Virus record (IMG/VR): IMGVR_UViG_3300005259_000049
Location: 1 to 24,047 of that record
Length of the DNA stretch: 24,047 nucleotides
Reading direction: 5' to 3' (one strand)
From: a virus
Taxonomy: Duplodnaviria > Caudoviricetes
Within the stretch, counting starts at the first letter, position 1. Each line of letters opens with the position of its first letter. Below are positions 4,761 to 23,056 of this stretch, one piece after another. Below the pieces are notes generated by a model. The model saw nothing but the letters and a program-made list of their open reading frames with translations. It did not search any database and had not been told where the DNA came from. The translations under genes were made by a program, and so were the position numbers.

Positions 4761-4962
4761 ACTGATTATCAAAAACTATACTTATGTCATTTTTAAAATC
4801 TTGCGACCTGCATTTTAGTTCCCAGAGTACTATTACGTACTACTATGTATATATTTTTACTTATTAAGTTTTATTCTTTCCTAGTGCTTTATAGTAGTAT
4901 TGGGTATAATATCTTCGTGTTTTAGTATCATTTGTTGGCATAGGAGGATGACAGCAAGTAAA

Positions 4963-5379
4963 ATGCCAGATAAGTTATGCAAAGAAAAGCGAAGCTGGAA
5001 TATGAGTCAAATTCGCTCAAAGAACACCAAGCCAGAGTTATTGGTCAGGTCTCTTTTGCATAAAGCTGGATATAGATTTCGTATTCATGTTAAGGATCTA
5101 GCAGGAAAACCAGATATTGTTTTGCCTAAGTATAATAAAGCAATTTTTGTAAATGGTTGCTTTTGGCATAGACATGAAGGATGTAAAGATGCATCTATTC
5201 CAAAGACAAACATTGACTATTGGGAAGCAAAGATACAGAAGAATATTTCAAGAGATCGTAGTAATGCTTTACTACTTACTAATTTAGGTTGGGATGTTGT
5301 AATAATTTGGGAATGCGAGCTTAATAGGCCTGATGACCAAATCTTATCTTTTTTGATAAATAGGATATTTCCATCATGA
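4963..5379 (+). CDS. vsr: Very short patch repair endonuclease
   Basis: RSWNMSQIRSKNTKPE, GKPDIV, FVNGCFWHRH, IIWECE. The start could alternatively be 4948. Confidence 0.95.
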   Translation: MPDKLCKEKRSWNMSQIRSKNTKPELLVRSLLHKAGYRFRIHVKDLAGKPDIVLPKYNKAIFVNGCFWHRHEGCKDASIPKTNIDYWEAKIQKNISRDRSNALLLTNLGWDVVIIWECELNRPDDQILSFLINRIFPS

Positions 5380-6482
5380 GTAATGATATTTCTATATTTT
5401 CATTTTTTTCAGGTTCAGGATTTTTAGATCTTGGCTTTGAAAAAGCAGATTTTAAAATTTGTTTTGTAAATGAATTAAAATCATCATTTCTTGATGCTTA
5501 TAAGTACTCAAGAAAAGTATTAGGAATACATCCACCAAAGTATGGATATTCAGGAGAAAGCGTAGAGAATTATCTATCTGGGGAAGATGCCATTTATCTT
5601 AAATCTTGCATGCTAAAAGAGAAAGAGGATCATAATATCGTAGGATTCATAGGCGGACCGCCTTGCCCAGATTTTTCGGTTGGAGGTAAAAATCGCGGAC
5701 GACATGGTGATAATGGTAAACTCTCTGGTATTTATATCGACTTAATATGTAATAATCATCCTGACTTTTTTGTTTTCGAGAATGTTAAAGGTCTATGGAG
5801 GACTAAGCGGCATCGAGAATTTTTTGAAGAATTGAAGGCGCGCTTGTCGGATCATGGATATATTATGTCAGAAAAGCTAGTTAATTCAATTGAATATGGA
5901 GTTCCCCAAGACCGCGATAGAATAATATTATTTGGTGTGCAAAAATCATCTCTTCAGCAAGGTTCGCCTATTGAAAGCTTTAATTGGAACTTAAAGAAGA
6001 GATATAATAAAGAGGATGTTTTTAACCTTCCTTGGCCTAATAGCAATCCTCTTAATCAGAATATTAAATTATCTTCTTCTCTTCCCAAAGAACTTACTGT
6101 AGACTACTGGTTCAAAAAAAACGATGTAGAAAATCATCCAAATTCAAAAGACCAATTTAAGCCGCGAGCTGGTCTAGAAAAATTTTTACGGATAGAAGAA
6201 GGCGACGATTCAAAAAAATCATTTAAGAGGCTTCATAGGAATCGCTATTCTCCAACTGTATGTTATGGTAACAATGAAGTACATCTACACCCAACCTTGC
6301 CCAGGAGGATAAGTGTTGCTGAAGCTCTTGCTTTACAAAGCCTTCCTTCAAATTTTGAACTACCATCGAGTATGACACTCTCAGATAAATTTAAAACTGT
6401 TGGGAATGGAGTCCCCTTTTTGTTAGCAAAAGGTCTCGCAGAAACAATTAAATATTTTATTGAAAAAAGCATGGAGGTATAA
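5376..6482 (+). CDS. DNA (cytosine-5) methyltransferase of a type II R-M system
   Basis: Motif I FSGSGFLDLG, IV GGPPCPDFS, VI ENVKG, VIII QDRDRI, X GNGVP. Confidence 0.95.
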   Translation: MSNDISIFSFFSGSGFLDLGFEKADFKICFVNELKSSFLDAYKYSRKVLGIHPPKYGYSGESVENYLSGEDAIYLKSCMLKEKEDHNIVGFIGGPPCPDFSVGGKNRGRHGDNGKLSGIYIDLICNNHPDFFVFENVKGLWRTKRHREFFEELKARLSDHGYIMSEKLVNSIEYGVPQDRDRIILFGVQKSSLQQGSPIESFNWNLKKRYNKEDVFNLPWPNSNPLNQNIKLSSSLPKELTVDYWFKKNDVENHPNSKDQFKPRAGLEKFLRIEEGDDSKKSFKRLHRNRYSPTVCYGNNEVHLHPTLPRRISVAEALALQSLPSNFELPSSMTLSDKFKTVGNGVPFLLAKGLAETIKYFIEKSMEV

Positions 6483-6483
6483 G

Positions 6484-7563
6484 ATGACTAGAGTTACAGC
6501 AGCAAATATTGCTTATTGGATTTCACAGCTTGATAAAAATACGATTTATAACTATATAAATCAAAATAATCGTGGTAGTATAAAAATCATTAGAGTTGAT
6601 CTTCCAGAAGGCCCAATAATTATCCGGCGTTGGAATTCATCAAAACAAATGACATTTAGTGATGTTCATGATGAGACAATTTCATCAAATATGTTATGGA
6701 GAGTTGCTAATGCTATCCAAGATGATGTACCAATTAACATGGATAGAATTCTAGGTGCAAGCTATAATACCAGATCAGTATTAGAAAGCTTATTAGCATA
6801 TACCCCGCTATTTCATATTACTCACCCCGGCAGGATAGAGATAATCAATTCTTCGTCAGAAATAAAGCAAGGCCACAAACATATCATATTTCTTCCCGAG
6901 AACCCTCACATTCAAGGCCAATTGAGCACTATTGAAACTGGCAAAGTAATATCAGAAATTCCTTCTCAACAAGCAATTTATGAATCTTTAGTCGTCCCTG
7001 ATGACTTTGGATCGCATAAAGAAACCTTAAACATAGAACAATCAAGAAGACATGCTCAGATCCAAATTGCGCTAGTATTAATTGGGATGCAGCTTGGATA
7101 TAGAACATGGATTGCACAAAATGATAGAGGGATAGAATATAACCATAAAAAAATTAGTGAGTTAGAATGTGTTGTTCCCTCATTAAGTCGCGAAAACCTA
7201 CTTTTAGGTTTTCAAGATGCAGCTAAAGCAGCCCAACTCATAGATTGTATATGGTTTAAAAATGGAAGACTAATGCCCGCAGTAATGGAGGTTGAATATA
7301 CAACAGGTATCACAAGTGGATTAACACGAATGAAAAATTTTCAAGATAAATTACCACCTTTCCCCACTAGATATGTTATTGTCGCTCCTGACGAAGATAG
7401 AGATAAGTTTATTCGTGAAGCCTCTAAAAGCCAATTTCTTGAACTAAAGAGTAGTTTCTTTGCCTTTTCTGCAGTTGAAGAATTATACTCACTTTGCCAA
7501 AGAAGGAAAATTTCGGGAGTAACAGAAAGCTTTCTTGATTGCTTTATGGAAAAAATTGCTTAA
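6484..7563 (+). CDS. Putative type II restriction endonuclease, PD-(D/E)xK-like C-terminal domain
   Basis: Directly follows the MTase, RBS GGAGG; HAQIQ..L, IDCIW..., MEVEYTTGITSGLTRM catalytic-like motifs. Confidence 0.75.
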   Translation: MTRVTAANIAYWISQLDKNTIYNYINQNNRGSIKIIRVDLPEGPIIIRRWNSSKQMTFSDVHDETISSNMLWRVANAIQDDVPINMDRILGASYNTRSVLESLLAYTPLFHITHPGRIEIINSSSEIKQGHKHIIFLPENPHIQGQLSTIETGKVISEIPSQQAIYESLVVPDDFGSHKETLNIEQSRRHAQIQIALVLIGMQLGYRTWIAQNDRGIEYNHKKISELECVVPSLSRENLLLGFQDAAKAAQLIDCIWFKNGRLMPAVMEVEYTTGITSGLTRMKNFQDKLPPFPTRYVIVAPDEDRDKFIREASKSQFLELKSSFFAFSAVEELYSLCQRRKISGVTESFLDCFMEKIA

Positions 7564-7578
7564 TGATATATTAGAATA

Positions 7579-8700
7579 CTATTTATCATTAAGATACTTA
7601 TCAACAATATTACTCCTATACTCTAAGAATTGTTGAATATGTGTATCTGTACCCACACAATCACCCCAATGAAAATTGTCAATACTCCATTTGCTATCAG
7701 TATTCTGAGGTACCTTTATATATTGAGGGAGAATATTACATGACTTTGAATATAATTCTTCAGCTTTTCTAAATAGCAAATTTCGTAGGTTTAAGTTGAA
7801 ATCTGTCGGCTTAAGCAAGCTATTAGGAATATATATTGTATTAGCAGGACTTGTAAAAAGTCCATAAATTGGTTTTGAATATTGCTCTCCATTACAAAAC
7901 TCTAATTCAGCTTCCATTCGATTATTAGATTTTTTGTGATCAATAAGATGTGCTAATGAATAATTTTTAGGCCCAAACTTGCCAAAAGGCTTCCCTCTAA
8001 AGATAAAAGACCAAATATGTTTAGGAAAATCATTTCCATCGATTTTTATAGCATCTTTAATATCATTAACATCGAGACTAATATGGTTTGTATACGATGA
8101 AATCTCTTTGCTCCCTGCATACCGACGAATTCCAGGGAAACAGCACGGAGATTTATCCCAAAGATATAATGCCGGATCAACATTTCTAAGCATCAAGATA
8201 TTTGACCATTCAGAAAAATGTTTACTATTATCTTCCACAATCAGTTTTACAATATCTGGAGATATAAAACGAATATACTTCGTTGCGACCTGCGCCAATT
8301 GGTAAATTTCTTCATCACTCGGCAATTCCCATTCAGGCCATGTTTCTCTTTTTAATGTTTTTCTGTTCTTAACGTTCAACACCGAAATACCTATTGTACT
8401 GTTTTTATCATCTTTATTTTCTCGAAAATCTATGTACTGAATGACTGCGTGTCTAAAAGTAGCCGTGCCTGATCTGATATCACCTTGTATGGGAATGTTA
8501 TGTTTTTGAGGTCTTGAATTTCTTTCATCATCTATGGAATAGCTCAATTTATACAGTAATCCTGAACAATGATCTTTATTAAAATGCTCATCTAGATCAC
8601 CTTCAAATTTCTCAATTCGAGAACAATTAGCTTTTCGAGAGTCGCTTGTATGTTTACTATATCTTTTTAGGAGCCATTGATAAAAATCAACTTCTTGCAT
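7579..8700 (-). CDS. Hypothetical protein, possible HNH-like nuclease (defence candidate)
   Basis: 373-aa AT-rich ORF convergent with the R-M operon; LAHLIDH...SPANTIYIP resembles a degenerate HNH core. Confidence 0.5.
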   Translation of the reverse strand: MQEVDFYQWLLKRYSKHTSDSRKANCSRIEKFEGDLDEHFNKDHCSGLLYKLSYSIDDERNSRPQKHNIPIQGDIRSGTATFRHAVIQYIDFRENKDDKNSTIGISVLNVKNRKTLKRETWPEWELPSDEEIYQLAQVATKYIRFISPDIVKLIVEDNSKHFSEWSNILMLRNVDPALYLWDKSPCCFPGIRRYAGSKEISSYTNHISLDVNDIKDAIKIDGNDFPKHIWSFIFRGKPFGKFGPKNYSLAHLIDHKKSNNRMEAELEFCNGEQYSKPIYGLFTSPANTIYIPNSLLKPTDFNLNLRNLLFRKAEELYSKSCNILPQYIKVPQNTDSKWSIDNFHWGDCVGTDTHIQQFLEYRSNIVDKYLNDK

Positions 8701-8771: not shown

Positions 8772-9572
8772 TTATGGTGTATCAATTCCTATATTATTAG
8801 CGTAATCTAATATAGATATTACCCTATCTATCGCATGGGATAGTGTAAATGCAACATGTGCTTTCCCTTTATACTCTTTGATATACGCCTTCGTATGCTC
8901 TAAATGCCCAGTGAAACCCACAGTTTTGCAGAGTACTGAGCTAGTCAGCTCTGCTACAACTTCGCTGAAGGCGTAATCTTCGCTTTTTCCTGGTACCTCG
9001 TTATCAATAGCATGCCCTAGCTCATGGAACCATGTTGTCACATCATCGGTCCCTAATAATATTTCCTTAGAATCCGGCTTGAAGAATCCATAGGCATCTA
9101 CGGTTAGCCCAGGGCATACCTTCACCCCCAAGTGGTCAGCAACCGCCTTCAATGGCAGCTTATCGATCTCGAATCTCTTCCCTTCAAGCCCTTCATATGG
9201 CAATGCCTCTCCTTCCGTCTGGTCAGATGCGAACACCGGGCAGCACCGAAAGCCCACAAGCTTTGATTCCGCCTCTTCACTTTCCTCCTCAGGCGGATTC
9301 TTTGCCATGACAGGAACGAGGATAAACGCCGACCTCGCACCCTTCTTCACCCTCCGGCCCACCTTGTTCCACTGATCAAACCCCCGGCAATCAAGGTTCA
9401 TGGTCCTGGAAAGTACTGCCATCTTATTGAGAGACGACCATTTCATCGCCGGAACCTCAATGTTCATCGATTTATAAAACATGTTCTTCTCTACAAATTG
9501 AGCTAAGCCGTCGCCTTCGATGTACTTCACTACACTATCCAGGGTGAGCCTGGCATTTTCAGTGAGTCCCAT
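8772..9572 (-). CDS. ardC: ArdC-like antirestriction protein (ssDNA-binding domain plus zincin-like domain)
   Basis: GFDQWNKVGRRVKKG, VFASDQTEG, HELGH (HExxH), EVVAEL. Confidence 0.8.
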   Translation of the reverse strand: MGLTENARLTLDSVVKYIEGDGLAQFVEKNMFYKSMNIEVPAMKWSSLNKMAVLSRTMNLDCRGFDQWNKVGRRVKKGARSAFILVPVMAKNPPEEESEEAESKLVGFRCCPVFASDQTEGEALPYEGLEGKRFEIDKLPLKAVADHLGVKVCPGLTVDAYGFFKPDSKEILLGTDDVTTWFHELGHAIDNEVPGKSEDYAFSEVVAELTSSVLCKTVGFTGHLEHTKAYIKEYKGKAHVAFTLSHAIDRVISILDYANNIGIDTP

Positions 9573-9610
9573 AGTATGTCTCCTTGAAGTTTTCTGATGT
9601 CAGAAGATAG

Positions 9611-9644
9611 AAAAGCCCGGTATGCCGCATGACATATCGGGCTT
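9611..9644 (-). terminator. Hairpin / probable terminator upstream of ardC
   Basis: AAGCCCG-TATG...CATA-CGGGCTT inverted repeat with TTTT on the minus-strand 3' side. Confidence 0.45.
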
Positions 9645-9794
9645 ATGCATCCCCTTGTAAGGAAAGAAGCTATTTGTTGACGATAGACATTATCAGCGTT
9701 AGTCTTATAAGGCCCGCTGATTCCTGAGGCGATTCCCCAGGCTCGAAGGAGTGAAAGGCTATCGACGTTGCTCCTGTCGGCGGGCACTTCATCA

Positions 9795-9920
9795 TCAATA
9801 CCCAAACATTCTTAGTCCGAGCGTCCCCAAAGAAACCCCGACTCCAACCGTAAGCCCCAGGTAGAGTCCCATCCAGAAACGGTTATCTTTGCTTGCCCAG
9901 GTTAATCTCTTGCCAAGCAC
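9795..9920 (-). CDS. Small single-pass membrane peptide (41 aa)
   Basis: GTG at 9920 lies 6 nt after AAGGAGG; hydrophobic Gly-rich stretch FWMGLYLGLTVGVGVSLGTLGL. Confidence 0.45.
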   Translation of the reverse strand: MLGKRLTWASKDNRFWMGLYLGLTVGVGVSLGTLGLRMFGY

Positions 9921-10086
9921 CAAATTCCTCCTTATCGCAATTGAAAGATTCATCCGAAGCCTCACAAAGCGCCACGAACGGTCCGGGCATGCGAAATGCA
10001 CAATCCTGACAGAGATTGAGCGTTTTACGTTTCACCCATTGAAACTCATGCCCAATCACCCTAAAAACACGCCTGTAGTTGCTCAT
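9883..10086 (-). CDS. Small Cys-rich hypothetical protein
   Basis: RBS AGGAGAGG; CQDC...C...C; first gene after a leftward TTGACA at 10136-10141. Confidence 0.55.
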   Translation of the reverse strand: MSNYRRVFRVIGHEFQWVKRKTLNLCQDCAFRMPGPFVALCEASDESFNCDKEEFGAWQEINLGKQR

Positions 10087-10163
10087 CACCTCTCCTGTAT
10101 AATACCGATGTATTGTTAGTACACTACATTTGTATTGTCAACAGGAAAAAGAGAGCTGGTACG

Positions 10164-10439
10164 TTATTTACAGGGAACCCACTGTATCTTAGGCGGCCTA
10201 TACAGGTCATCGGCATCATCGAAGGGAGTGCCGAAGGGCTTCTCAGGATCGGTGGTATAGGTTGCTTGTTTCACTGCAAAGAGCTTCTTGGCTGTTACTT
10301 TGACGATCTTCATATTCGGCTCCCACTTCTTTGAAGCCTCACAGCCGAGCCATTTAGCAATCCCGGCATTTGGAGCAATTATCGGGTAAATGCCTGTCCC
10401 GCCACCCTTATAGTAGACTTCCACTTCGTACTTCATCAT
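10164..10439 (-). CDS. Hypothetical protein
   Basis: 91 aa; ATGA overlap with the upstream gene. Confidence 0.65.
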   Translation of the reverse strand: MMKYEVEVYYKGGGTGIYPIIAPNAGIAKWLGCEASKKWEPNMKIVKVTAKKLFAVKQATYTTDPEKPFGTPFDDADDLYRPPKIQWVPCK

Positions 10440-10762
10440 AGACCAGCGCCCTCCCTCTTTAGCTCAACATGCTCAGCAACGATCCTGACTGATGACCGTT
10501 CAAAGCCGGATGCATCGATTGATTTTGTTTCCCGCAATCTGCCAACGACTCGTATCCCTCTCCCCTCTTTAACGATAAAAGCGATTTGCTCTCCCAATCG
10601 CCCTCCGGCCTCAACCTCGAAAGTTGACTCTTCTTTCATGCCATCATGCTTATAGCGGCAGGATATAATCGAAAACTCGCAAAGCTTGCCATCGGGAGCC
10701 GTGACGGTCCTCGGCTTCAATGCACATTTGCCTTCCAGAAGTATGCTATTCAGGCAATTCAC
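10436..10762 (-). CDS. Short SSB-like OB-fold protein lacking the acidic tail
   Basis: MNCLNSILLEG...GRGIRVVGRLRE...VRIVAEHVE, recalled as the pattern of the short spirochete SSB paralog. Confidence 0.8.
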   Translation of the reverse strand: MNCLNSILLEGKCALKPRTVTAPDGKLCEFSIISCRYKHDGMKEESTFEVEAGGRLGEQIAFIVKEGRGIRVVGRLRETKSIDASGFERSSVRIVAEHVELKREGAGL

Positions 10763-10950
10763 GCTTCTTCCTCCTCGTTTCGGTGTTCATTGAACTGGTG
10801 GACGATTATCACTCTTGATTCTTTCCCTATCTGGCTATTTGGATCTGTATTTGACTTTTTATTTATTGTCTTTTCTTCTTCTCTCTTCTTATCTCTAATC
10901 TCTTGAGCCTTCCTCAAGAATCCACTCCGAAATGCAATGACAGTACTCAT
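10759..10950 (-). CDS. Hypothetical protein
   Basis: 63 aa with 4-bp start/stop overlaps on both sides. Confidence 0.55.
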   Translation of the reverse strand: MSTVIAFRSGFLRKAQEIRDKKREEEKTINKKSNTDPNSQIGKESRVIIVHQFNEHRNEEEEA

Positions 10951-11495
10951 GCCGCGGCCTCCTCAGTTTCAAGCTTTCTCATTTCGGCAACGTACTTTTC
11001 ACATTCCTGGTACGTCCCCGATGCTTCGACATCCCCCTCCTCATTGAATACGTTGTAGGTGTCACCTTCCAGGTAGGCTTTCCAGGCCTGGAACTCTTGT
11101 TCGAGATAGCCTTTCAAGAGCTCTGCCCGATCCCTGTTGATCCTTTTCCAGCCCATGAGCTTCACGACGCTTTCAGGCTTTATGTAGATGAAGCCAAGCT
11201 TGCCGCAATCCCACTGACGATCGGGCCAGTTGCCATAGCCGCCCAAGGATACGGTGATGCCGGAGTGGTCATACATATAGATTTCCTTGAACAACCCCCA
11301 CTTCATCGCCCAAAGAAGATCCTTTCGGTAATCCTCGATATAGCCTGTAAGCCTGTCAGGATTCGAAAAGTTCTCATCGCCCAGGCAGTACCGCCTATGG
11401 CCTGTCACGATAGTCGTTAGGTTGTCACATTCTCGCCTTCCTAGAGGGTCCTGATCCTGGATGATTCTGTAGGTTTTGATACCTTCATTGCCCAT
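10947..11495 (-). CDS. Conserved phage/ICE hypothetical protein
   Basis: YMYDHSGITVS...WDCGKLGFIY...YLEGDTY motif, recalled from mobile-element proteins; start uncertain (11495/11498). Confidence 0.7.
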   Translation of the reverse strand: MGNEGIKTYRIIQDQDPLGRRECDNLTTIVTGHRRYCLGDENFSNPDRLTGYIEDYRKDLLWAMKWGLFKEIYMYDHSGITVSLGGYGNWPDRQWDCGKLGFIYIKPESVVKLMGWKRINRDRAELLKGYLEQEFQAWKAYLEGDTYNVFNEEGDVEASGTYQECEKYVAEMRKLETEEAAA

Positions 11496-11506
11496 CACGG
11501 CATCCT

Positions 11507-11731
11507 TCATGAATGGAAACTGTAGTGCGGTGTGCAATGCTCGTCGAAGATTGCACCCATGACGAATGGGCTTCGCGCCTCGCCCCGCCAGAATACGAGC
11601 GTGTAGTTGTTTTCACCCCATCCATCCTTGCTGATTGTTACCTTCTCGGCATTGATCTGCTGCCCATACCGATGCGCTTTTAGGAGAACGGCATCGGGGA
11701 TGTCCTTTAGTTCTTGCGAATCGACAATCAT
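11507..11731 (-). CDS. Hypothetical protein
   Basis: 74 aa, RBS AAGGGAG, in the operon. Confidence 0.6.
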   Translation of the reverse strand: MIVDSQELKDIPDAVLLKAHRYGQQINAEKVTISKDGWGENNYTLVFWRGEARSPFVMGAIFDEHCTPHYSFHS

Positions 11732-11796
11732 TATTACTCCCTTGTAGTCATTTTATATACTTCTGTATTCCTAATGATATAAAAACAGTACGCCCT

Positions 11797-12270
11797 TCAA
11801 CTTCCAAAGGAAGCGGCGATCTTTCCATGCTCCACAAAGCTGTAGGAGCCGTACTTCCCGATGATGAGGTGATCCAGAATCGGGATTCCCATGACTTCCC
11901 CGGCATCCTTTAGCCGCTTCGTGATCTCGATATCTTCCATGGAAGGCTCCACCGAGCCTGATGGATGGTTATGAGCAATAATGAGCGCCACCGCATTGTC
12001 CTTGATTGCCGCCCGGTATACTTCCCTCGGATGAATCAGGGTCTTGTTCACCAGGCCTTTCGTCACCGTATGCGTCCTGATCGGCTTATGGGCTCCATCG
12101 AGGCTTATCACGATGAAATGCTCCTGGGTTCGCTTGGCGAATGTTGCCAGGAGCTTCACGACATCCTTAGGTTGCTTAACCTGAACCTCCAAGACGATCC
12201 TTGAGATTGCCCCGCCGTAGTTGCCCTTCTCGATCATCGAAAGGACTTCTGACTTCTCCGACTCGTTCAA
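11797..12270 (-). CDS. radC: RadC-like JAB-domain protein
   Basis: QEHF, IHPREV, AHNHPSG..EPS..D, LDHLIIG; probable TTG start at 12270 overlapping the upstream TGA. Confidence 0.92.
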   Translation of the reverse strand: MNESEKSEVLSMIEKGNYGGAISRIVLEVQVKQPKDVVKLLATFAKRTQEHFIVISLDGAHKPIRTHTVTKGLVNKTLIHPREVYRAAIKDNAVALIIAHNHPSGSVEPSMEDIEITKRLKDAGEVMGIPILDHLIIGKYGSYSFVEHGKIAASFGS

Positions 12271-12434
12271 TTCTCCACCTCCCATACATCTAACGCTCTT
12301 TTGAGCGCCTTTAGCTTCAAAGCAGACCCAAGAAATTCTCTTGTACCTCCTGGCGTAACGCCATAGACCTGTTGCCCTTCGACCAGCATCATGAAGATGC
12401 CAAGGCCGAACCTGTAGTACATGCCGACTACCAT
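12267..12434 (-). CDS. Small hypothetical protein (55 aa, absent from ORF track)
   Basis: ATG at 12434 after AGGAGG; MVVGMYYRFGLGIFMMLVEGQQ...DVWEVEN; stop overlaps the radC start (TTGA). Confidence 0.6.
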   Translation of the reverse strand: MVVGMYYRFGLGIFMMLVEGQQVYGVTPGGTREFLGSALKLKALKRALDVWEVEN

Positions 12435-12639
12435 TGGTGAGACCTCCTATATTCTTTCGAGCTGCATGATTTGCTTATTGAATCAATAGAGTATTTATTA
12501 CTATTTTGCCAATCTATTTATTTTGCAATATATACATTTACAAGTGTAACATTTAGTAATATTCTAAAAATTTGGATATGGCTAAGGATCTTTGAATTTT
12601 ACAGATTCAATTAAATATTATCAAAAACAGGAGATGATT

Positions 12640-13377
12640 ATGAAGAAACTATTAATTGCTTTCACAATTATCTTAGCTTGTATGATTTTATTCGATTGTT
12701 CAATGCCAAGCGACGAAGATCTGGATTCTTTTCAACTTGATTATTCCGATTATGACCTAATTTTGAATTCATCGGCCTTAGCATATATAACCGATAACAA
12801 TGCTATTAATTGGTATACCAACAATAATGCTATCATAAGAATTTCAGCAACAAATGACCCAAAAATTGTAAAAATTACAGGTATGACACTTGGTACAGCA
12901 ACTTTAAGCTGCAATTACAAGTACAATAACGAAACTTACGAACGGACACGTACAATCCATGTAGTTAATCCTAACTATCCAACTACACCAATATTCGGTA
13001 ATTATGACGCATGGACCTATGTAAATTCACCAGGCTGGATAAAAGTAGAAAATGCAAGATTTACAATTTCTAGTACATCATTAGTGATGGCAGGGACGAC
13101 ACTCTTTCCGAATTCAAACAATATCTACAAAGATCAAAAGCTTTTTGCGCTAAATGGACAAATTTGGATGACATACAAATTGAATAATACTTTACAGAAA
13201 ACTTATCTTTTTGACTATTATTTTGAAGACAACACTCGATATGGAACAAAAGTACTTTGGATAAAAAATGATTCCACAAGTGACTATACAATATATTGGA
13301 AACCTTCAGCTGAAACCGCAGCATCTTCCTTAATAATTCCATACATTTTAGTAGGGAATACTCCTACGAATCCTTAG
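12640..13377 (+). CDS. Putative lipoprotein with Ig-like (Big_2-like) domain
   Basis: MKKLLIAFTIILACMILFDC signal; WYTNN..I....ITGMTLGTATLS Ig-like pattern; AT-rich. Confidence 0.6.
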   Translation: MKKLLIAFTIILACMILFDCSMPSDEDLDSFQLDYSDYDLILNSSALAYITDNNAINWYTNNNAIIRISATNDPKIVKITGMTLGTATLSCNYKYNNETYERTRTIHVVNPNYPTTPIFGNYDAWTYVNSPGWIKVENARFTISSTSLVMAGTTLFPNSNNIYKDQKLFALNGQIWMTYKLNNTLQKTYLFDYYFEDNTRYGTKVLWIKNDSTSDYTIYWKPSAETAASSLIIPYILVGNTPTNP

Positions 13378-13428
13378 CAGATATTTTTAAAGTCAAAGCT
13401 ATAAATGTTTTATTTAGGGGAGCATGAT

Positions 13429-14766
13429 ATGAAAAATAACCGCTCTTCGTTATCGCTTTTTATTTTTACCTTACTTTTGTTCGCTACTCTATTTGAGTTT
13501 TCTTGTTCCTTTTCACCAAAAATAGTTGACAATCCTATCATATCGCCTTCGCCTAACGCTGTCGGAGATTATGGCCCTATAGAAATTACAATATCATGCC
13601 CAACAGAGAATGCACAAATTAGGTACACAATCAATGGGAGCTATCCAAATAAAGATAGTGGTATTATCTATACAGGTCCATTTACAATAACGAAACTTAG
13701 TTCAATATCTGCTATCGCATTTACAAATGATGCAGTATCAAATGTGGTAACAAATTTGTACACTATCTGTAAAAAAATAAACCCACCAAATTTTAATATC
13801 CAAGAAGGTACTTATACCGGTTCACAAAGCATAGAGTTATCTAATGATGCTGGTGCCTTGGTTTCAATAAAATACACTCTTGATGGCACCACTCCCTCAC
13901 ATAAGCATGGCTTGACCTATAATGGTCCAATTAGTATTGAAAACACAACAACTATAAAAGCAATAGCACTATTTAACTACGGCCTACTTAACCCTCTTCC
14001 TAATGATGAAGGATATGGCGGAAATTCTGACCTAAGTAGCGCAAAATATACTGTAGAGAATAGCCTAAATTCACCAGAATTTAGCCTTGAATCAGGGGTG
14101 TACAATAACCAACAAACAGTATCGATAACATGTACCGATCCTGGGGTTACTATCAGGTATACAATCGATGGCTCTGATCCAACCACTACGGCTGGCATCG
14201 TTTACTCAAATCCAATTGCTATTACCTACTCTCATCCATTAAAAGCGATAGCATATATAGGTTCTAAAGCTTCTCAAATTAGTTGTACTGCTTATTGGAT
14301 TACTGGATCTTCAGGAGGACTAATATTTTATGGTAAAAGTTCACCTACTGACGGTTGGCAATTTATGGAAGCACATTTGTATGAAGGTACAGAGAATCCT
14401 CCCTGGGGAACAACAGCAATCCTTATCGGAACAGAAAGCGGGATAGGTACAGGTAAAAATAATACAGATAAAATTTCCTCTTATTTTAATGGGATAAGTA
14501 CAGCGGCTTCGTTATGCAAAGCTGCTAACGCATTTGGCTATGATGATTGGTTTTTACCATCAATCGATGAGTTGAGAGCATTTTTTATAAACGTTTGCGA
14601 ATATGACGAAGAAGATAAATTCAAAGGAGCTTTTTGGAGCTCTACTGAATATGGTGAGACGCATGCTTACATACTTTTACCAGCTGAGCCAAAAGAAGGA
14701 CCAAACTGGGTTACTTTTAAATCTTTGAGTACAGATTATAAAATACTACTTGCAAGAGAATACTGA
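13429..14766 (+). CDS. Putative lipoprotein: 3 Fn3-associated/chitobiase-like repeats plus DUF1566-like C-terminal domain
   Basis: Lipobox-like FSC; three I(R/K)YT(I/L)(N/D)G(S/T)xP repeats; GYDDWFLPSIDEL and FWSSTE motifs. Confidence 0.75.
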   Translation: MKNNRSSLSLFIFTLLLFATLFEFSCSFSPKIVDNPIISPSPNAVGDYGPIEITISCPTENAQIRYTINGSYPNKDSGIIYTGPFTITKLSSISAIAFTNDAVSNVVTNLYTICKKINPPNFNIQEGTYTGSQSIELSNDAGALVSIKYTLDGTTPSHKHGLTYNGPISIENTTTIKAIALFNYGLLNPLPNDEGYGGNSDLSSAKYTVENSLNSPEFSLESGVYNNQQTVSITCTDPGVTIRYTIDGSDPTTTAGIVYSNPIAITYSHPLKAIAYIGSKASQISCTAYWITGSSGGLIFYGKSSPTDGWQFMEAHLYEGTENPPWGTTAILIGTESGIGTGKNNTDKISSYFNGISTAASLCKAANAFGYDDWFLPSIDELRAFFINVCEYDEEDKFKGAFWSSTEYGETHAYILLPAEPKEGPNWVTFKSLSTDYKILLAREY

Positions 14767-14828: not shown

Positions 14829-14958
14829 CTCTTAAGCAATTGGGGCTAACGCCGGATCACAATAATGTGTTCCGGCGCTATAGATCCTATAAGCGAAACA
14901 GAGCTATTTTAGCTTACAATTAGCATTCTGCAAGTATAAATGTTAAAAAAAGGGATTA

Positions 14959-15005
14959 TGCTACAGCCCCGGAATTGAACCGGGCGACAACCCTATGCTG
15001 TAGCA
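14959..15005 (-). ncRNA. Minimal tRNA-like element (acceptor-like stem plus T arm, no anticodon arm)
   Basis: TGCTACAGC-ATAGGGTTGTCG-CCCGG-TTCAATT-CCGGG-GCTGTAGCA: 9-bp stem and a canonical 5-bp/7-nt T arm. Confidence 0.6.
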
Positions 15006-15636
15006 CGGACTACTCCCATTTGTATGATAGGCTAGCCCATTGAAGCTGTTTGTGGCCTAACGACTGGCCCATTCGACCCACTATGGCTCTTTGGTACTCC
15101 CCTCTTCGTATGGTGTCCCAGGCTAGAAGCATCCTGCATCCTCTAGGCATGGACTGACCCTACAATTCGCCTTCGCGCAAGGTGAATCGACGCTTAAGCG
15201 CCTGACCCATTCCGACTACATAGCGCCACAAAGTGGCTGCCCCGTCGGCTCAGATCGCCCACTACCCCTAGCAACCGCTCAGATGCTTCCAGCCTGTTCT
15301 ACCATACAAAGCTCTCAACGCTCATCGCGCATATCAAGGACGCTAACCTATTGCGGGTATAAAGAGGCTTACCCTATTGCATAGTGACAACACTACAACA
15401 GTATCCCTATAGAGCAAGATCCATGCTTTTGATGCGAGACTACGGGCTTGCCGATGGCGCGCCAGTCTACGCGAAAGCATGAGCCATGCCAATTTTATGG
15501 GAATTGTAGCTATGCAAACCGAAGGCCTATGAATACATAGTGCTTTCTATATATCGATTACCCGTAAAATTGCCCTATTGAGTGAAAGAAAAAATCGAGA
15601 CTAGGACACTTCCAGCGTCCCGGTGGGCAAAGCCCA

Positions 15637-16020
15637 CTACGCCCTATAATTCAAGACTTTCTGAGCTTCCTTGTGCAGCGTGTTTTTTGCCGTTGCCGAT
15701 GCTTTCAATACGTCGTCAAGCGTTGAGTGTTCCGTGATATGCCTATAGCAGGTCAAGAAAGGTCCTTTCACTATCTTTCCAGCTTTCCTGTCGAGTACAT
15801 AGCTTTTCACGACGTTGAAGGCTTCTATATCACTTCCCGCGGATTTTATGAGATTCACGGCTTTCCTAGTGCTCGCTTTCCTGCTTCCATACCGTGCCAC
15901 GCTTTGCGCTACCGCTTCCGGCTTCCCTGCCTGTATGCTTGCCATGAGAGCGGGAAGCATTGCTTTCATAGTATCCGCGACGATTGAAGAAATAAGTTTT
16001 TCCATTGCGATATTGTCCAT
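15637..16020 (-). CDS. Orphan basic protein (127 aa)
   Basis: RBS AAGGGG; Lys/Arg/Ala-rich; no recognisable motif. Confidence 0.65.
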   Translation of the reverse strand: MDNIAMEKLISSIVADTMKAMLPALMASIQAGKPEAVAQSVARYGSRKASTRKAVNLIKSAGSDIEAFNVVKSYVLDRKAGKIVKGPFLTCYRHITEHSTLDDVLKASATAKNTLHKEAQKVLNYRA

Positions 16021-16289
16021 ATATATGCCCCTTGTGTTGATTTTTAGGGCAATTATATAGGCAATCGAGATATTCCCTTCCCTTGTGGTGGCGGGTCAAG
16101 CTTTCAAGGTTCGGCAAGCATGGCGCGGGCTTTCTATAAAGCCCCTCAATTGAACGCATTTCACTGCGCGGGAAAGATAGGACACTTCCCTTTCTACAGT
16201 CGCCCTTGCGTACTAGACTGCAAGACTATCCGCTACTTGTCACGGCTTTACGTGACGGCTTGTAAAAGAACGGTATCGAAAATACTTTG

Positions 16290-16590
16290 TATCGTTTTTC
16301 GATAGTCTTATCATCTAGGACATTCTCGATTATGTCAATATATTTTTTCGAATTTATCGATAATTTATTTTATCGTTTTTCGATTAGAATAAATAAGAAT
16401 GGTATAAAGCATGCTATGCAATGAAATGGCATATAAGTATTGAAAATATTCTCATGTGAGTATTTAGGCTGAAAAATCAAGATACAAGCCCCCCAGGGGG
16501 GACATGGGGATTCGCGCGTGGAAGAATAACACCTGGAATTATCTACAATATAAAATAGTGTTGACTTATTATCGAAAAACGATATATTAT
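16290..16590. promoter_or_regulatory. Divergent sigma70-like promoters with three TATCG-N5-CGAT(A/T) operators
   Basis: Operators at 16290-16304, 16371-16385 and 16570-16584; rightward TTGACT (16561) N18 TATTAT (16585); leftward TTGACA (16338-16333). Confidence 0.65.
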
Positions 16591-16609
16591 ACAAACTATT
16601 GGAGGAATC

Positions 16610-16864
16610 ATGGCTAGTAGAACATCTACAGGAAAAGTATATGTTGGGATAAAAGTACCTGATAAGAATTACGAATTTCTCCAAGAGATTATAGATAAAG
16701 AAGGCGGCAGTATGGCTGGCTATATCAACGAAGCAATACAGAAATGGCTTCTAGATAAAGGCTTCGATGCAGAAATCGCCATTGACCATAGAACAGGGAA
16801 GTGGGTCAGGATTAAGGAACCAGATACTAATAAGGAAGATAAGGAAGATAAGGGAGACAAGTAG
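16610..16864 (+). CDS. Ribbon-helix-helix (CopG/Arc-like) regulator
   Basis: VYVGIKVP strand, then helices DKNYEFLQEIIDKEG and SMAGYINEAIQKWL; RBS GGAGG. Confidence 0.65.
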   Translation: MASRTSTGKVYVGIKVPDKNYEFLQEIIDKEGGSMAGYINEAIQKWLLDKGFDAEIAIDHRTGKWVRIKEPDTNKEDKEDKGDK

Positions 16865-17456: not shown

Positions 17457-18587
17457 TTATTGCACAATCTTGCGAATTTTATGGTTATAGGTATCTGCAA
17501 CAAAAATATCACCTGATGAATTAATGGCAATGCCACCTGGCCAATAAAATGAAGCTGTGTTGCGGGGGCCGTCATCAGAGCCTTGAGTCCCAGTACCTGC
17601 AATTGTAGATACAATCCCATCAGGTGTTATTTTTCTTATCTTATTATTGTACATATCTACAATATAAACATTACCGAAAATATCAATTTTTATCCCTAGG
17701 GGATTATAAAAGGACGCAGTAGCACTGGGACCGTCTATTGAACCCTGAGTTCCTGAACCGGCAAGAGTCGTTACAATACCCAATGAAGATATTTTGCGGA
17801 TCTTCTGATTGCCTGTATCTGTCACATATAAAGTATTATTTACATCAATTGCTATCCCAAATGGTGAGTAGAATGTTGCTGCTGTGCCAGTCCCGTCTGT
17901 TGAGCCAGCAACCCCAGAACCTGCAAAAGTTGTCACTACTTTTTCAGGTGTGATCTTCCGAATACAATTATTGCTTGAGTCTGCTACAAAGATATTGCCT
18001 ATGCTATCAACAGCAATACCCAAAGGATTATGGAAGGATGCGGATGCTCCAGTTCCATCAGTAAATCCTGCGCTCCCTGAACCAGCAATGGTGGTAACAA
18101 TTCCTGTTGGAGTAATTTTTCGAATTTTATTAGTATGAGAATCAACAACATACAGATTCTTTGAGGTATCAATAGCAATACCTAATGGATATCCAAAAGA
18201 AGCTGCTAAGCCTGTGCCATCGACTGAATTAAAACTCCCAGAACCGGCTATTGTCGTTACAATTCCAGTGGACGAAATCTTTCTGATTCGTGAATTACCA
18301 TTATCAACAACATATAAATCGCCAGTAGAATCTACAACAATGTCGGCAGGATAACTGAATGAGGCTGCAGAACCTGTACCATTTGCATATCCTGATGTCC
18401 CTGAGCCAGCAAATGTGTAGACTCCCGAAGGTGCAATTGTTGTGCTCGTGGTCGTAGTGCTCGTGGTCGTAGTGCTCGTGGTCGTAGTGCTCGTGGTAGT
18501 TGTTGCATCGGGACCAGGAATATTTTGGCAACTTGTAATTAACAACGCTGATAGAATAATGATGACAATTCTACTAAGCTTTTTCAT
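17457..18587 (-). CDS. NHL-repeat beta-propeller lipoprotein (moron)
   Basis: Lipobox LITSC, Thr-rich linker, six ASF..P.GIA(V/I)D..GN.YV.D..N.KIRKI repeats. Confidence 0.88.
   Translation of the reverse strand: MKKLSRIVIIILSALLITSCQNIPGPDATTTTSTTTTSTTTTSTTTTSTTIAPSGVYTFAGSGTSGYANGTGSAASFSYPADIVVDSTGDLYVVDNGNSRIRKISSTGIVTTIAGSGSFNSVDGTGLAASFGYPLGIAIDTSKNLYVVDSHTNKIRKITPTGIVTTIAGSGSAGFTDGTGASASFHNPLGIAVDSIGNIFVADSSNNCIRKITPEKVVTTFAGSGVAGSTDGTGTAATFYSPFGIAIDVNNTLYVTDTGNQKIRKISSLGIVTTLAGSGTQGSIDGPSATASFYNPLGIKIDIFGNVYIVDMYNNKIRKITPDGIVSTIAGTGTQGSDDGPRNTASFYWPGGIAINSSGDIFVADTYNHKIRKIVQ
18442..18497 (+). repeat. 15-bp tandem repeat GTGCTCGTGGTCGTA x3.7 encoding the TTTST linker
   Basis: Three perfect copies plus a partial fourth. 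Confidence 0.9.
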
Positions 18588-19215
18588 ATTTAAATCCTTT
18601 TACTACAATATCTAGTATTATTACATATTATTGAAAATACACAAGGTAATATTTATCCTCGATAGAAGGTTTTCTTTTGAAAGATATGAAGGAACCTGAC
18701 AGCGTAGAGTTAAAATCTTTTTAGGCCCACTAAGCTATAAAAAGCATAGTATCTAGCAATAAAAACTAATATCGTTATTAAGAACCTCCGTCATCAATCC
18801 TTTCGTGATATCTCCTGACATCTCCTTCCTTTTATTGACATATTGCTTTAATAAGTGTATTGACACACTTTTTATTTTACTCTCTTAATATAAGTGTTAT
18901 TACACCTTTGTATTTAATAGCACTACAAAAGAGATAAGATGATCACTTTCCTCCGTCTCCAGAGGGCTTCGCTAGCGCTCAGCACGACTACGGAAAGTCA
19001 GGCTTAAAATACTCATAGATAAGCAATATAGACAGAAACATCTCACCACCAAGGGGAAGGTGTCTAGCTTGAGAAAGACTACCTCCTGGTCTTTCTGAAT
19101 GGACTCCAAAAGTATGTTGACCAATAGAGTAAAACGAATTATATAGAAACATACACTAGTGGTGTATATACACTACAATAGAGTTTTATCTAGCTATTCC
19201 TCCTTTGGGAGACGA

Positions 19216-21214: not shown

Positions 21215-23056
21215 TTGAAAGATGCCGTCGATGCCGCCTATGGAAGCCCCGAGCATGAGGAGCGCCGTAAGAAGTGGCAGCGCTTCATTAAGGAATTCAC
21301 CGGGAAGTGGTGGAATGAAGCCGAACTCACCCCTGAGGATTCGCGCGTATTCTGCAACTTCATCTTCTCGACCATCCAGACCACCGCCCCGCTTCTCACC
21401 GACAATAGGCCAATTTGGACGGTCCTTCCCCGACGCTATTTCTTTCAGCGTGTCGCTGACCTTTATAACGATGCTCTCAAGTTCGTTTGGGAAATGACCA
21501 GGATGGATGAAAAGCTCCTCGATGCCGTGTATGACTCTCTCCTCCACGGCACGGCGCTCTTCAAAGTCTACTTCGATCCTGATGCCTCGAATGGGCTTGG
21601 CGATATCGCTATCGATGTCATTGATCCCTTCGATTTCGTCATTGCTCCCGGCTATGACGACCCCTGGAATGCTTCATGGTGCGGGATGCGAAAGCTAATG
21701 CCCGTCGAGGATGTGAAGCGCCTCTATCCGAGCGCAGAAAAGCAGCTCACCCCTGAGGAATATGCGACCGAGCATGACCAGAAGCAGGATCGCCTCGCTG
21801 AACACGATCTCATCGGTGACTACATCCTCGTCTATGAAATCTGGCTTAGGGACAATACGACCGAGGAGGCGATAGAAGAGCAGTATGCCGGGAAGGACGC
21901 TGACGGCCATGAGGTCATGGATTCTAAGAAGGTCAGGAAAGCGAAATACCCCAATGGCCGAATCCTCACCTTCACGGGCGGCAATGCAATCCTCCTCGAT
22001 GACCGCCCTTCACCTTTCAAACATGGAAGGCCGCCTTACGTCGCCCTCCATGACTACAAGGTTCCTCACCAGTTCTGGGGCATCGGGGAACCCGATCAGA
22101 TTGAAAACCTAAACCGGGAATTCAATGTCCGCTTGCAGCAGATCGTGGAGCATGCCCGGAAATATACGAAGCGGAACATCGTCGTCGATGAGTCGGCTGG
22201 CATCACGACCGAGCAGGTGAAGGAAGCGATTCAGAAGGGCGATCAGGTTCTACTGTCGAAGGCGGGCTTCGCAAAAGATGTCGTCGCCACCCTCGATGTT
22301 CCCGACCTTCCCCCGGTGATCACGCAGATAATGTCCACACTTCCTCAGCTCATTGAGGAGGTTTCGGGCGTCACCGATGTCACGAAAGGCGTCACAGGCA
22401 AGCGCCAGCGCCAGACTGCCACCGAGATGTCGATGCTCCTTGAGTCCTCTTATACCCGCACCAGGCAGCGAGTACGAAACCTGGAATCATCAATTAAGCG
22501 GCTCGCCACTCTCATCGTGGAACTCATGATGCAGTTCTACACTGAGCCGCGGAACTTCTATATCCGCAAGGATGACGAGGTTCAGTACGGCGTTATCTCG
22601 AATCAAAGCAGTTTCCTAAAGGAAGCGATGAAGCCGCAAGAGAATGCCGGCCTCATGGATGATGACCTTTCGGAAGAGGAGAAAGAGGACATCGAGGACT
22701 ATGAAAAGCTCATCGATGCCATAGCGGAGACGGATGAAGTCTATTTCGACTTCAATATCGAGATTCAGACCAATTCGACGCTGCCTTTAGACCGCCAGTC
22801 CTTAGCAAACCTCATGCTCCGGCTTGCCGAAATGAAGATCGTCGATGCCCAGGCTGTCCTTGAAACGTTGCGCGTTCCCGGAACCGATAAGATCCTCGCC
22901 CGCCTCGCTGAGCAACGGCAGAAGGAAGAGGAGATGGCGAAGGCTGAAAATCAAGGCGGCGGCAATCCGCAGGAAGCTCAAGACAAGGCGATGGTGCAGA
23001 GCCTTTTAAATGACCTAAGCGATCAGCAAGTGAAGGAGGAAGCGGGTGCCTATTAG
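21215..23056 (+). CDS. Portal protein (P22-like / podovirus-type)
   Basis: 613 aa downstream of terL; IDPFDFVIAP, FWGIG, IEEVSGV..V..G, TATE...L motifs. The start may be CTG at 21200. Confidence 0.85.
   Translation: MKDAVDAAYGSPEHEERRKKWQRFIKEFTGKWWNEAELTPEDSRVFCNFIFSTIQTTAPLLTDNRPIWTVLPRRYFFQRVADLYNDALKFVWEMTRMDEKLLDAVYDSLLHGTALFKVYFDPDASNGLGDIAIDVIDPFDFVIAPGYDDPWNASWCGMRKLMPVEDVKRLYPSAEKQLTPEEYATEHDQKQDRLAEHDLIGDYILVYEIWLRDNTTEEAIEEQYAGKDADGHEVMDSKKVRKAKYPNGRILTFTGGNAILLDDRPSPFKHGRPPYVALHDYKVPHQFWGIGEPDQIENLNREFNVRLQQIVEHARKYTKRNIVVDESAGITTEQVKEAIQKGDQVLLSKAGFAKDVVATLDVPDLPPVITQIMSTLPQLIEEVSGVTDVTKGVTGKRQRQTATEMSMLLESSYTRTRQRVRNLESSIKRLATLIVELMMQFYTEPRNFYIRKDDEVQYGVISNQSSFLKEAMKPQENAGLMDDDLSEEEKEDIEDYEKLIDAIAETDEVYFDFNIEIQTNSTLPLDRQSLANLMLRLAEMKIVDAQAVLETLRVPGTDKILARLAEQRQKEEEMAKAENQGGGNPQEAQDKAMVQSLLNDLSDQQVKEEAGAY

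Follow-up and report, generated by a model that had tools for sequence, protein, structure and literature searches.

A candidate large structured RNA that encloses a small basic ORF in temperate phages

The prophage locus and its relatives

The window (the whole 24,047-nt stretch analysed here) is a virus record classed as a provirus, and its terminase and portal genes place the element described below in a prophage, the location known for GOLLD RNAs. The phage is temperate and tailed: the left side of the window encodes NinG, Gp157, SSB and an AAA protein, the right side TerS, TerL and a P22-like portal. The sole evidence for a host is a Spirochaetota/Spirochaetales label on two members of the protein clusters of a 127-aa ORF that lies within the element. 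The element sits between a divergent 84-aa gene with terS and a leftward early block encoding RadC/JAB, SSB-like and ArdC-like anti-restriction proteins (Table 1); terS is upstream in all 14 loci read and radC downstream in six of them, the remainder ending earlier or holding longer cargo. Slots of AT-rich cargo, different in each locus, flank the element at 12592-14766 (plus strand) and 17457-18587 (minus strand), and in the window contain two lipoprotein-like genes (one with Fn3-associated and Lcl C-terminal domains) and an NHL-repeat gene.

Several other features of the window merit record. A low-GC island at 4900-8700, with Vsr, a C5 DNA methylase and two unassigned ORFs, is probably a restriction-modification module. 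On the minus strand at 10157-10085, ahead of the block that ends in the ArdC-like gene, a long imperfect hairpin encloses a promoter-like TTGACA together with the ribosome site that follows. Its z is -3.4 when folded as DNA and -4.5 when folded as RNA, G001, G002 and G003 contain similar sequence, and the arrangement recalls single-strand (Frpo-type) promoters. Just 3' of the conserved terL promoter at 18860, an element of ~54 nt (18945-18998, plus strand) with complementary ends and an inner GCTTCGC hairpin is nearly invariant in 7/7 loci and may be a late antitermination, packaging or small-RNA signal. Folding z-scores are also low inside the portal gene (21501-21750, -4.3, plus strand; 22001-22250, -3.4, minus strand).

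Table 1. Features of the element and its immediate neighbourhood (window coordinates)
Feature	Position	Strand	Evidence
Divergent 84-aa gene	16610..16864	+	Allele goes with operator allele in the 14 of 20 loci where recovered; PHROG matches weak only
Predicted sigma70-type promoter: TTGACA, 17 nt, GATGAT	16310..16338	-	TTGAC box in 20/20 loci
Operator-like imperfect palindrome (14 nt) at predicted start site	16290..16303	-	Three exact copies
First conserved hairpin, 6-nt loop	16239..16256	-	97% of cells paired, 2 compensatory pairs
5' multibranch domain: basal helix with invariant AUA bulge, at least two interior architectures	16088..16236	-	Consensus helices 2-6, alignment
ORF-closing helix, 5' strand; also predicted to hide ribosome site and AUG	16045..16073	-	Pairing counts
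127-aa basic orphan ORF, SD-like GGGG at ~16031-16028	15637..16020	-	dN/dS, pI
36-nt double-hairpin insert straight after ORF stop codon, TAG-flanked	15601..15636	-	In 10/18 loci
ORF-closing helix, 3' strand	15549..15577	-	25 pairs, 98.9% of cells paired, 6 compensatory pairs
Hairpin, A bulged on 5' strand 5 bp below loop	15521..15547	-	5 compensatory pairs, motif scan
Long branched domain, conserved UGUCA bulge, 3-nt AUC loop	15376..15518	-	Consensus helices 12-18
Hairpin; loop 15367-15361 predicted to pair with 15107-15101 (pseudoknot)	15355..15374	-	Stem pair UA9/CG7
Most conserved segment and long 3' arm with two bulged-A hairpins (15241-15222, 15208-15184)	15101..15346	-	Alignment, covariation, motif scan
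Conserved 3' junction and terminal hairpin (15040-15005)	15005..15100	-	Alignment, covariation
tRNA-half module: 8-bp acceptor-like helix stacked on T-arm (5 bp, 7-nt UUCRANU loop), 12-nt linker	14960..15004	-	Covariation, pairing counts
Downstream early block: small ORF, RadC/JAB, SSB-like, ArdC-like anti-restriction zincin	8772..12448	-	Conservation from ribosome site near 12448

Relatives were collected with the 127-aa protein as query, which yielded 28 loci (11 viral and 17 metagenome), and the flanking RNA sequence is present in all 28 of these protein-fetched loci. Removal of exact duplicates left 21 loci including the window, of which 18 were aligned, L026, L032 and L039 being dropped as near-copies. 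A scan of viral contigs with an RNA motif returned 13 matches, the same 11 ORF-bearing contigs and two chance matches, and RNA and ORF are therefore seen only together. The protein search found 19 relatives plus one more distant at 46%, to which a profile search added none; a look for the locus of the distant one gave no result. No sequencing run was listed as containing the RNA, and three runs from the same study yielded nothing, neither outcome bearing on expression. No GTDB genome matched by RNA motif or by protein profile; among 50,697 phage and 72,556 plasmid records, a blastn search with the 3' part gave nothing better than E 7-8, and a scan of viral contigs with a 15-nt motif returned, among the matches listed, mostly unrelated coding sequence. 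The family formed by RNA and ORF is small and narrow in distribution. The literature searched, in which coverage of subscription papers was thin and the 224-motif supplement of PMC5737381 lay outside the scope, held no prior description of the RNA by title or abstract.

A conserved predicted promoter precedes the element, its leftward -35 box at 16338 as originally predicted. The segment 16304-16273, a candidate 5'-most hairpin of the RNA, is better read as operators. Identical copies of the palindrome at the predicted start site stand upstream of the -35 box (16371-16384) and inside the divergent promoter (16571-16584), three exact copies against 0.02 expected, and the far copy has a matching allele in 15/18 loci. 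Operator alleles track the allele of the 84-aa gene and not the RNA tree: the element of L004 is 91% identical to that of the window, yet its operator and small protein differ. From its sequence pattern, we take the 84-aa product to be a likely ribbon-helix-helix-type repressor, and it may be autoregulated and control the RNA as well. Operator and gene together (16290-16864) make up an exchangeable cassette, in which five or more protein alleles occur; an ORF of the 84-aa type was not recovered by script in 6/20 loci, five of which have one further operator type in common. Upstream of the promoter, a run of six C followed by six G (16503-16488) occurs also in L014 and L037.

Architecture and conservation of the candidate RNA

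On the minus strand, promoter and operator are followed in 5' to 3' order by a hairpin, the 5' multibranch domain, the ORF-closing helix, a bulged-A hairpin, a long branched domain, the pseudoknot hairpin, the long arm, a junction, a further hairpin and the tRNA half. The consensus fold was computed without the ORF, with low-probability helices pruned and one hairpin and one pseudoknot added by hand, giving 258 pairs in which 94% of alignment cells are paired across the 18 loci. Compensatory change occurs in 76 of these pairs, a number that 0/500 shuffles reached and that compares with 12-21 in slid controls, while on the tree 49 compensatory events contrast with 2.7 +/- 1.8 in matched random columns and 68 same-branch double changes with 26 +/- 5, all of these controls being optimistic because the structure was derived from the same alignment used for scoring. 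Repeated compensatory events (at least two independent) are found in just three pairs.

Sequence conservation, which does not depend on how the fold was derived, points in the same direction. The non-coding 3' part is conserved above the fourfold sites of the ORF in 17/17 comparisons with the window, its identity being 76-86% in 15 of the 17 other loci, 95% in L004 and 64% in L038, against 36-69% at fourfold sites in all loci but L004. The original prediction had remarked that irregular pairs are mostly G-U on the minus strand; across the alignment, G-U cells outnumber A-C cells on this strand by 369 to 56, which fixes it as the RNA strand. Comparison with shuffled sequence, a check proposed at the outset, gives a mixed answer, since the 696-nt 3' part has a folding z of -4.2 on the minus strand but -4.5 on the plus strand, and 250-nt windows inside the element (minus strand) reach only -2.1 to +0.9. 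Folding energy is thus weak alone, and the case rests on conservation and covariation. The alignment also contains RNA-type motifs that we take to be a T-loop, GAAA loops and an AGUA/GAA internal loop.

The architecture first proposed is confirmed in part. Its core claim, ~900 nt of structured RNA looping out an orphan basic ORF, is borne out by conservation and covariation, and the nested pairing around the ORF holds for the inner part of the ORF-closing helix, where 16054-16045 with 15577-15568 is paired in 180/180 cells and 16068-16059 with 15563-15554 in 179/180. The outer pairings fall away: GGGAA with UUCCC has all five pairs in 1/18 loci and GCCAUGCU with GGCAUGGC all eight in 2/18, their strands pairing locally instead. 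Outside that helix the element is built of domains in series, its 5' and 3' ends not being joined by any covarying helix in the 18-locus consensus. The proposed 16-bp helix persists as a bulged long arm (15296-15276 with 15138-15119), its ungapped version being complete in just 1/18. A long hairpin domain (15422-15490) is upheld, as are the hairpins at 16256-16239 and 16144-16127, the second in 12/18 loci; those placed at 15604-15638 belong to an insert outside the core RNA, and the U7 tract at 14951-14945 has no hairpin-plus-U terminator counterpart in 13 other loci compared by eye.

The predicted pseudoknot spans 260 nt, with 102/105 cells paired and changes that are one-sided only, and a reading of the alignment by eye suggests that L010 keeps it through a register shift. 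Three further long-range (tertiary) pairings are conserved without compensatory change and are regarded as candidates. Long unpaired segments are nearly invariant, and the order of domains is fixed in all loci. L038 (1114-1600), the most divergent copy, has an RNA that ends after the second hairpin of the 3' arm and so lacks roughly the final 250 nt, including the pseudoknot partner and the tRNA half. Taken together, the conserved and covarying minus-strand structure, with ~930 non-coding bases around the 127-aa ORF, appears largely real. The element is very probably a genuine RNA gene and is likely transcribed as one large RNA; the single conserved promoter suggests that RNA and ORF are co-expressed.

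The enclosed ORF, the inserts and the 3' end

The 127-aa protein is under purifying selection (dN/dS 0.11-0.26 against 17 loci) and has a pI of 9.4-10.2. In its structure model (pLDDT 75), a helix at the N-terminus is followed by a low-confidence linker and then by a small helical domain. The protein matched nothing in Pfam or Atlas, and the model nothing in Foldseek at E<=0.001, the best VIA Z being 3.7.

The 5' strand of the closing helix can pair with the SD-like sequence and AUG instead of its distant partner, forming an SD-hiding hairpin in 18/18 loci. Among 20 start regions of the window that were folded, this one is the most stable (z -3.6), and matched changes in L012/L014 and L037 are consistent with the hairpin. 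Predicted energies are -13 to -18 kcal/mol for this local hairpin and -33 to -43 kcal/mol for the long-range helix as a duplex, about twice as strong. Because the stronger partner strand lies 422-511 nt downstream, the ORF is predicted to be silent in the nascent RNA and freed once the 3' strand has been made. The minimum-energy fold of the full window RNA, computed from this single sequence, keeps the SD hairpin and has no ORF-closing helix, so the outcome would depend on kinetics or partners. On balance, such a translation gate is somewhat favoured, in which synthesis of the downstream helix strand would unmask the ribosome site.

The chances that the protein binds RNA appear even; its basic pI fits DNA binding equally well. 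An RNP of RNA and 127-aa protein, as first suggested, is plausible. Candidate binding sites would be the bulged-A hairpins, of which 12 loci hold 30, against one with another bulged base and three on the reverse strand, for a motif defined after seeing the data and in loci related to each other. Nine of the 27 bulged-A matches in three prophage records fall in the RNA.

Nine sites in the RNA, all in loops or junctions, carry patchy inserts of 30-42 nt that consist of two adjacent hairpins. On the tree, the insert in the window requires seven or more gains or losses and another insert five or more, counts that phage recombination could inflate, and the same insert piece occurs at two sites of one RNA. 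Among viral contigs, the commonest type occurs in nine stretches, all of this RNA family, and it is confined to the RNA in five prophage records. GCGAAGC mini-hairpins on both strands of the inserts belong to these and not to the core. Short, patchy, two-hairpin elements inside structured RNA genes are described from fungal mitochondria (PMC10085805), and SRM are inverted repeats of 20-50 nt (PMC11893778); the inserts resemble both the mitochondrial elements and REP/SRM-type repeats, with the difference that the commonest type is found only inside this RNA among viral contigs. No mobilizing nuclease was identified for them. They are most likely DNA parasites tolerated in loops. In many cases, though, the second hairpin of an insert shares the bulged-A shape of three core hairpins, so the inserts may also act as extra binding sites.

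The tRNA half at the 3' end has a canonical-looking T-loop with neither anticodon arm nor CCA, and neither ARAGORN nor the Rfam tRNA model matched it. It is present in 11 of the 14 loci that run through its place and absent from three. Both acceptor strands are present and covary, which rules out a remnant of a tRNA attachment site. An acceptor-like helix stacked on a T-arm is also the plan of tRNA-like ends such as those of tmRNA (TLD), mascRNA and Y RNA, and such minihelices are RNase P substrates. Unlike these, the module has a 12-nt linker in place of the D and anticodon arms, has no CCA and is optional; neither a cloverleaf nor a TLD with tag ORF and CCA was found.

No conserved terminator was seen at the RNA 3' end in the loci compared. 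In 8/8 loci the downstream operon is conserved from its ribosome site onward (three have ~30 nt more in common) and lacks a conserved promoter, whereas the terL operon has a conserved TTGACA box in 7/7. Between RNA and downstream operon lie 0.27-2.5 kb of cargo in seven loci and ~3.5 kb in G002. The simplest reading of the missing terminator and of conservation that starts at the ribosome site is a longer transcript cut at the tRNA half, though the same facts support antitermination. Ahead of radC, an unlisted ORF of ~55 codons with a strong ribosome site (12434-12285, minus strand) is conserved in 8/8 loci and holds a bulged-A hairpin at 12364, possibly by chance.

Relation to known RNAs and possible functions

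Scans of the whole Rfam library with the window (E<=1) and with L024 and the insert-free L004 3' part (E<=10) gave chance matches only, in keeping with the novelty first proposed. The model of the conserved GOLLD 3' domain (RF02032) matched 0/5 records at E<=10, in a test whose controls scored below the cut-off only, with no true positive among them; the ROOL model (RF03087) matched 0/5 records, no control scoring either, and the whole-Rfam scans were likewise without a match. GOLLD and ROOL are large, ornate and prophage-encoded (PMC5737381; PMC12286853), GOLLD having a variable 5' domain, a conserved 3' domain and cargo (tRNAs) in the linker (PMC12286853); the available text of both papers gives neither a known function nor a phage-encoded partner. 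The present RNA likewise is a large, ornate prophage RNA with a variable 5' region, a conserved 3' region and linker cargo. Unlike in GOLLD, the cargo consists of a protein ORF whose translation is predicted to be gated; no tRNA genes were found in the window or in 11 stretches scanned. By the tests run, the element is not GOLLD, a group II or permuted group II RNA, a retron, DGR or other RT-linked RNA, a tRNA or a tmRNA. RNase P RNA was also rejected, as the GAAAGUCC run is not conserved, and Avd/DGR, as there is no RT. In kind the element looks most like GOLLD and ROOL, and in position like put and nut/N.

The reading preferred here is a stand-alone early RNA-protein particle with a gated ORF, a chain of steps that as a whole is held tentatively and falls somewhat short of an even chance. 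Transcription would start at the upstream promoter under the divergent small repressor; the nascent hairpin over SD and AUG would yield to the long-range helix, allowing the ORF to be translated; the basic protein may bind the repeated bulged-A hairpins; and tRNA-processing nucleases may cut at the tRNA half and free the RNA from a longer early transcript. To judge from the neighbourhood, the particle could then be a multivalent scaffold or decoy acting alongside RadC, SSB and anti-restriction genes. A more elaborate version, in which a giant phage RNA is both message and particle, is doubtful: the complete fold would license translation, the tRNA mimic would free the RNA, and the bulged-A hairpins would bind the protein and grow in number through uptake of double hairpins.

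Among the alternatives, the least unlikely is a cis-acting antitermination leader with an N-like partner, whereby RNA and protein would ride RNA polymerase through the cargo into the RadC block and gated translation would provide positive feedback. The RNA lies directly behind a repressor-flanked promoter, as putL does (PMC9378689), and, like put and nut/N, ahead of early genes without a conserved promoter of their own, if promoter activity is as predicted. HK022 put RNA, however, is ~70 nt with two stem-loops and needs no phage protein (PMC9378689), the RNA here being more than tenfold larger. The AT-rich cargo also has promoter-like sites of its own (e.g. 12624-12596), and no second RNA copy stands at another promoter in three prophages. 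Lambda N is a small, basic protein, as is the product of the first ORF here, but the 127-aa protein has no sequence or family match to N and matches no antiterminator family.

Rather less probable is a chain of independent leader modules, an ORF translational switch with separate small RNAs or processing sites and no single fold or particle. The element may be such a chain, since no covarying helix joins its ends and the three tertiary candidates show no compensatory changes, and an interchangeable 5' domain, an optional tRNA half and the truncated L038 fit as well; the 260-nt reach of the pseudoknot, the fixed domain order and the near-invariance of long unpaired segments speak against it.

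Self-processing would recast the element as a ribozyme, a class that the original prediction allowed, which excises or circularizes the looped-out ORF, and this is improbable. Circularly permuted group II RNAs are of similar size (~900 nt), and, as in introns of groups I and II, an internal segment is held between RNA domains; in the available text of PMC8637638, however, these RNAs have no ORFs within and form circles of 15-86 nt. An AAGCCG run near the 5' end and the AGUA/GAA loop are suggestive, but the AGC is changed in L033, and a script for the group II D5 hairpin (AGC triad, 5 bp, 2-nt bulge) found it in 0/15 loci. The Intron_gpII model (RF00029) matched 0/5 records while its controls scored, RT (PF00078) is absent from the same number of prophage records, three of them complete, and no position of a GUGYG/GGGCG 5' splice site before D1 is common to 11 loci, the GGGCG after the ORF being both coding and variable. 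Unlike group II and permuted group II RNAs, the element thus has no D5/D6, splice-site motifs, RT or interrupted gene, and its genomic position is fixed. For group I introns, whole-library Rfam scans gave no match and the P3-P7 core was judged absent from the alignment by eye.

Very improbably, the structure acts as single-stranded DNA, an entry or packaging signal beside terS: the element adjoins terS in every locus with flank read, the inserts carry mini-hairpins on both strands and a second promoter-enclosing hairpin exists at 10157-10085, but these mini-hairpins lie outside the core, and an RNA is what one would expect from the T-loop, the GAAA loops, the hairpin over the SD and a conserved promoter immediately upstream.

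The locus holds an uncatalogued large structured element whose enclosed ORF is probably gated. Beyond what was originally predicted, the comparison adds a putative ribosome-site switch, the tRNA-half module, polymorphic inserts, operators and a downstream early operon without a conserved promoter. Few bacterial RNAs are this large and complex. This one brings a candidate partner inside it, a predicted switch, a putative processing mark and a defined promoter flanked by operators, so that an in vitro transcript and a single small protein could serve to test each step proposed for the early RNA-protein particle. Were the RNA instead an antiterminator, put would be dwarfed by it. The nine insertion sites show at which points the fold accepts cargo, and they record the entry of small hairpin elements into a structured RNA gene.
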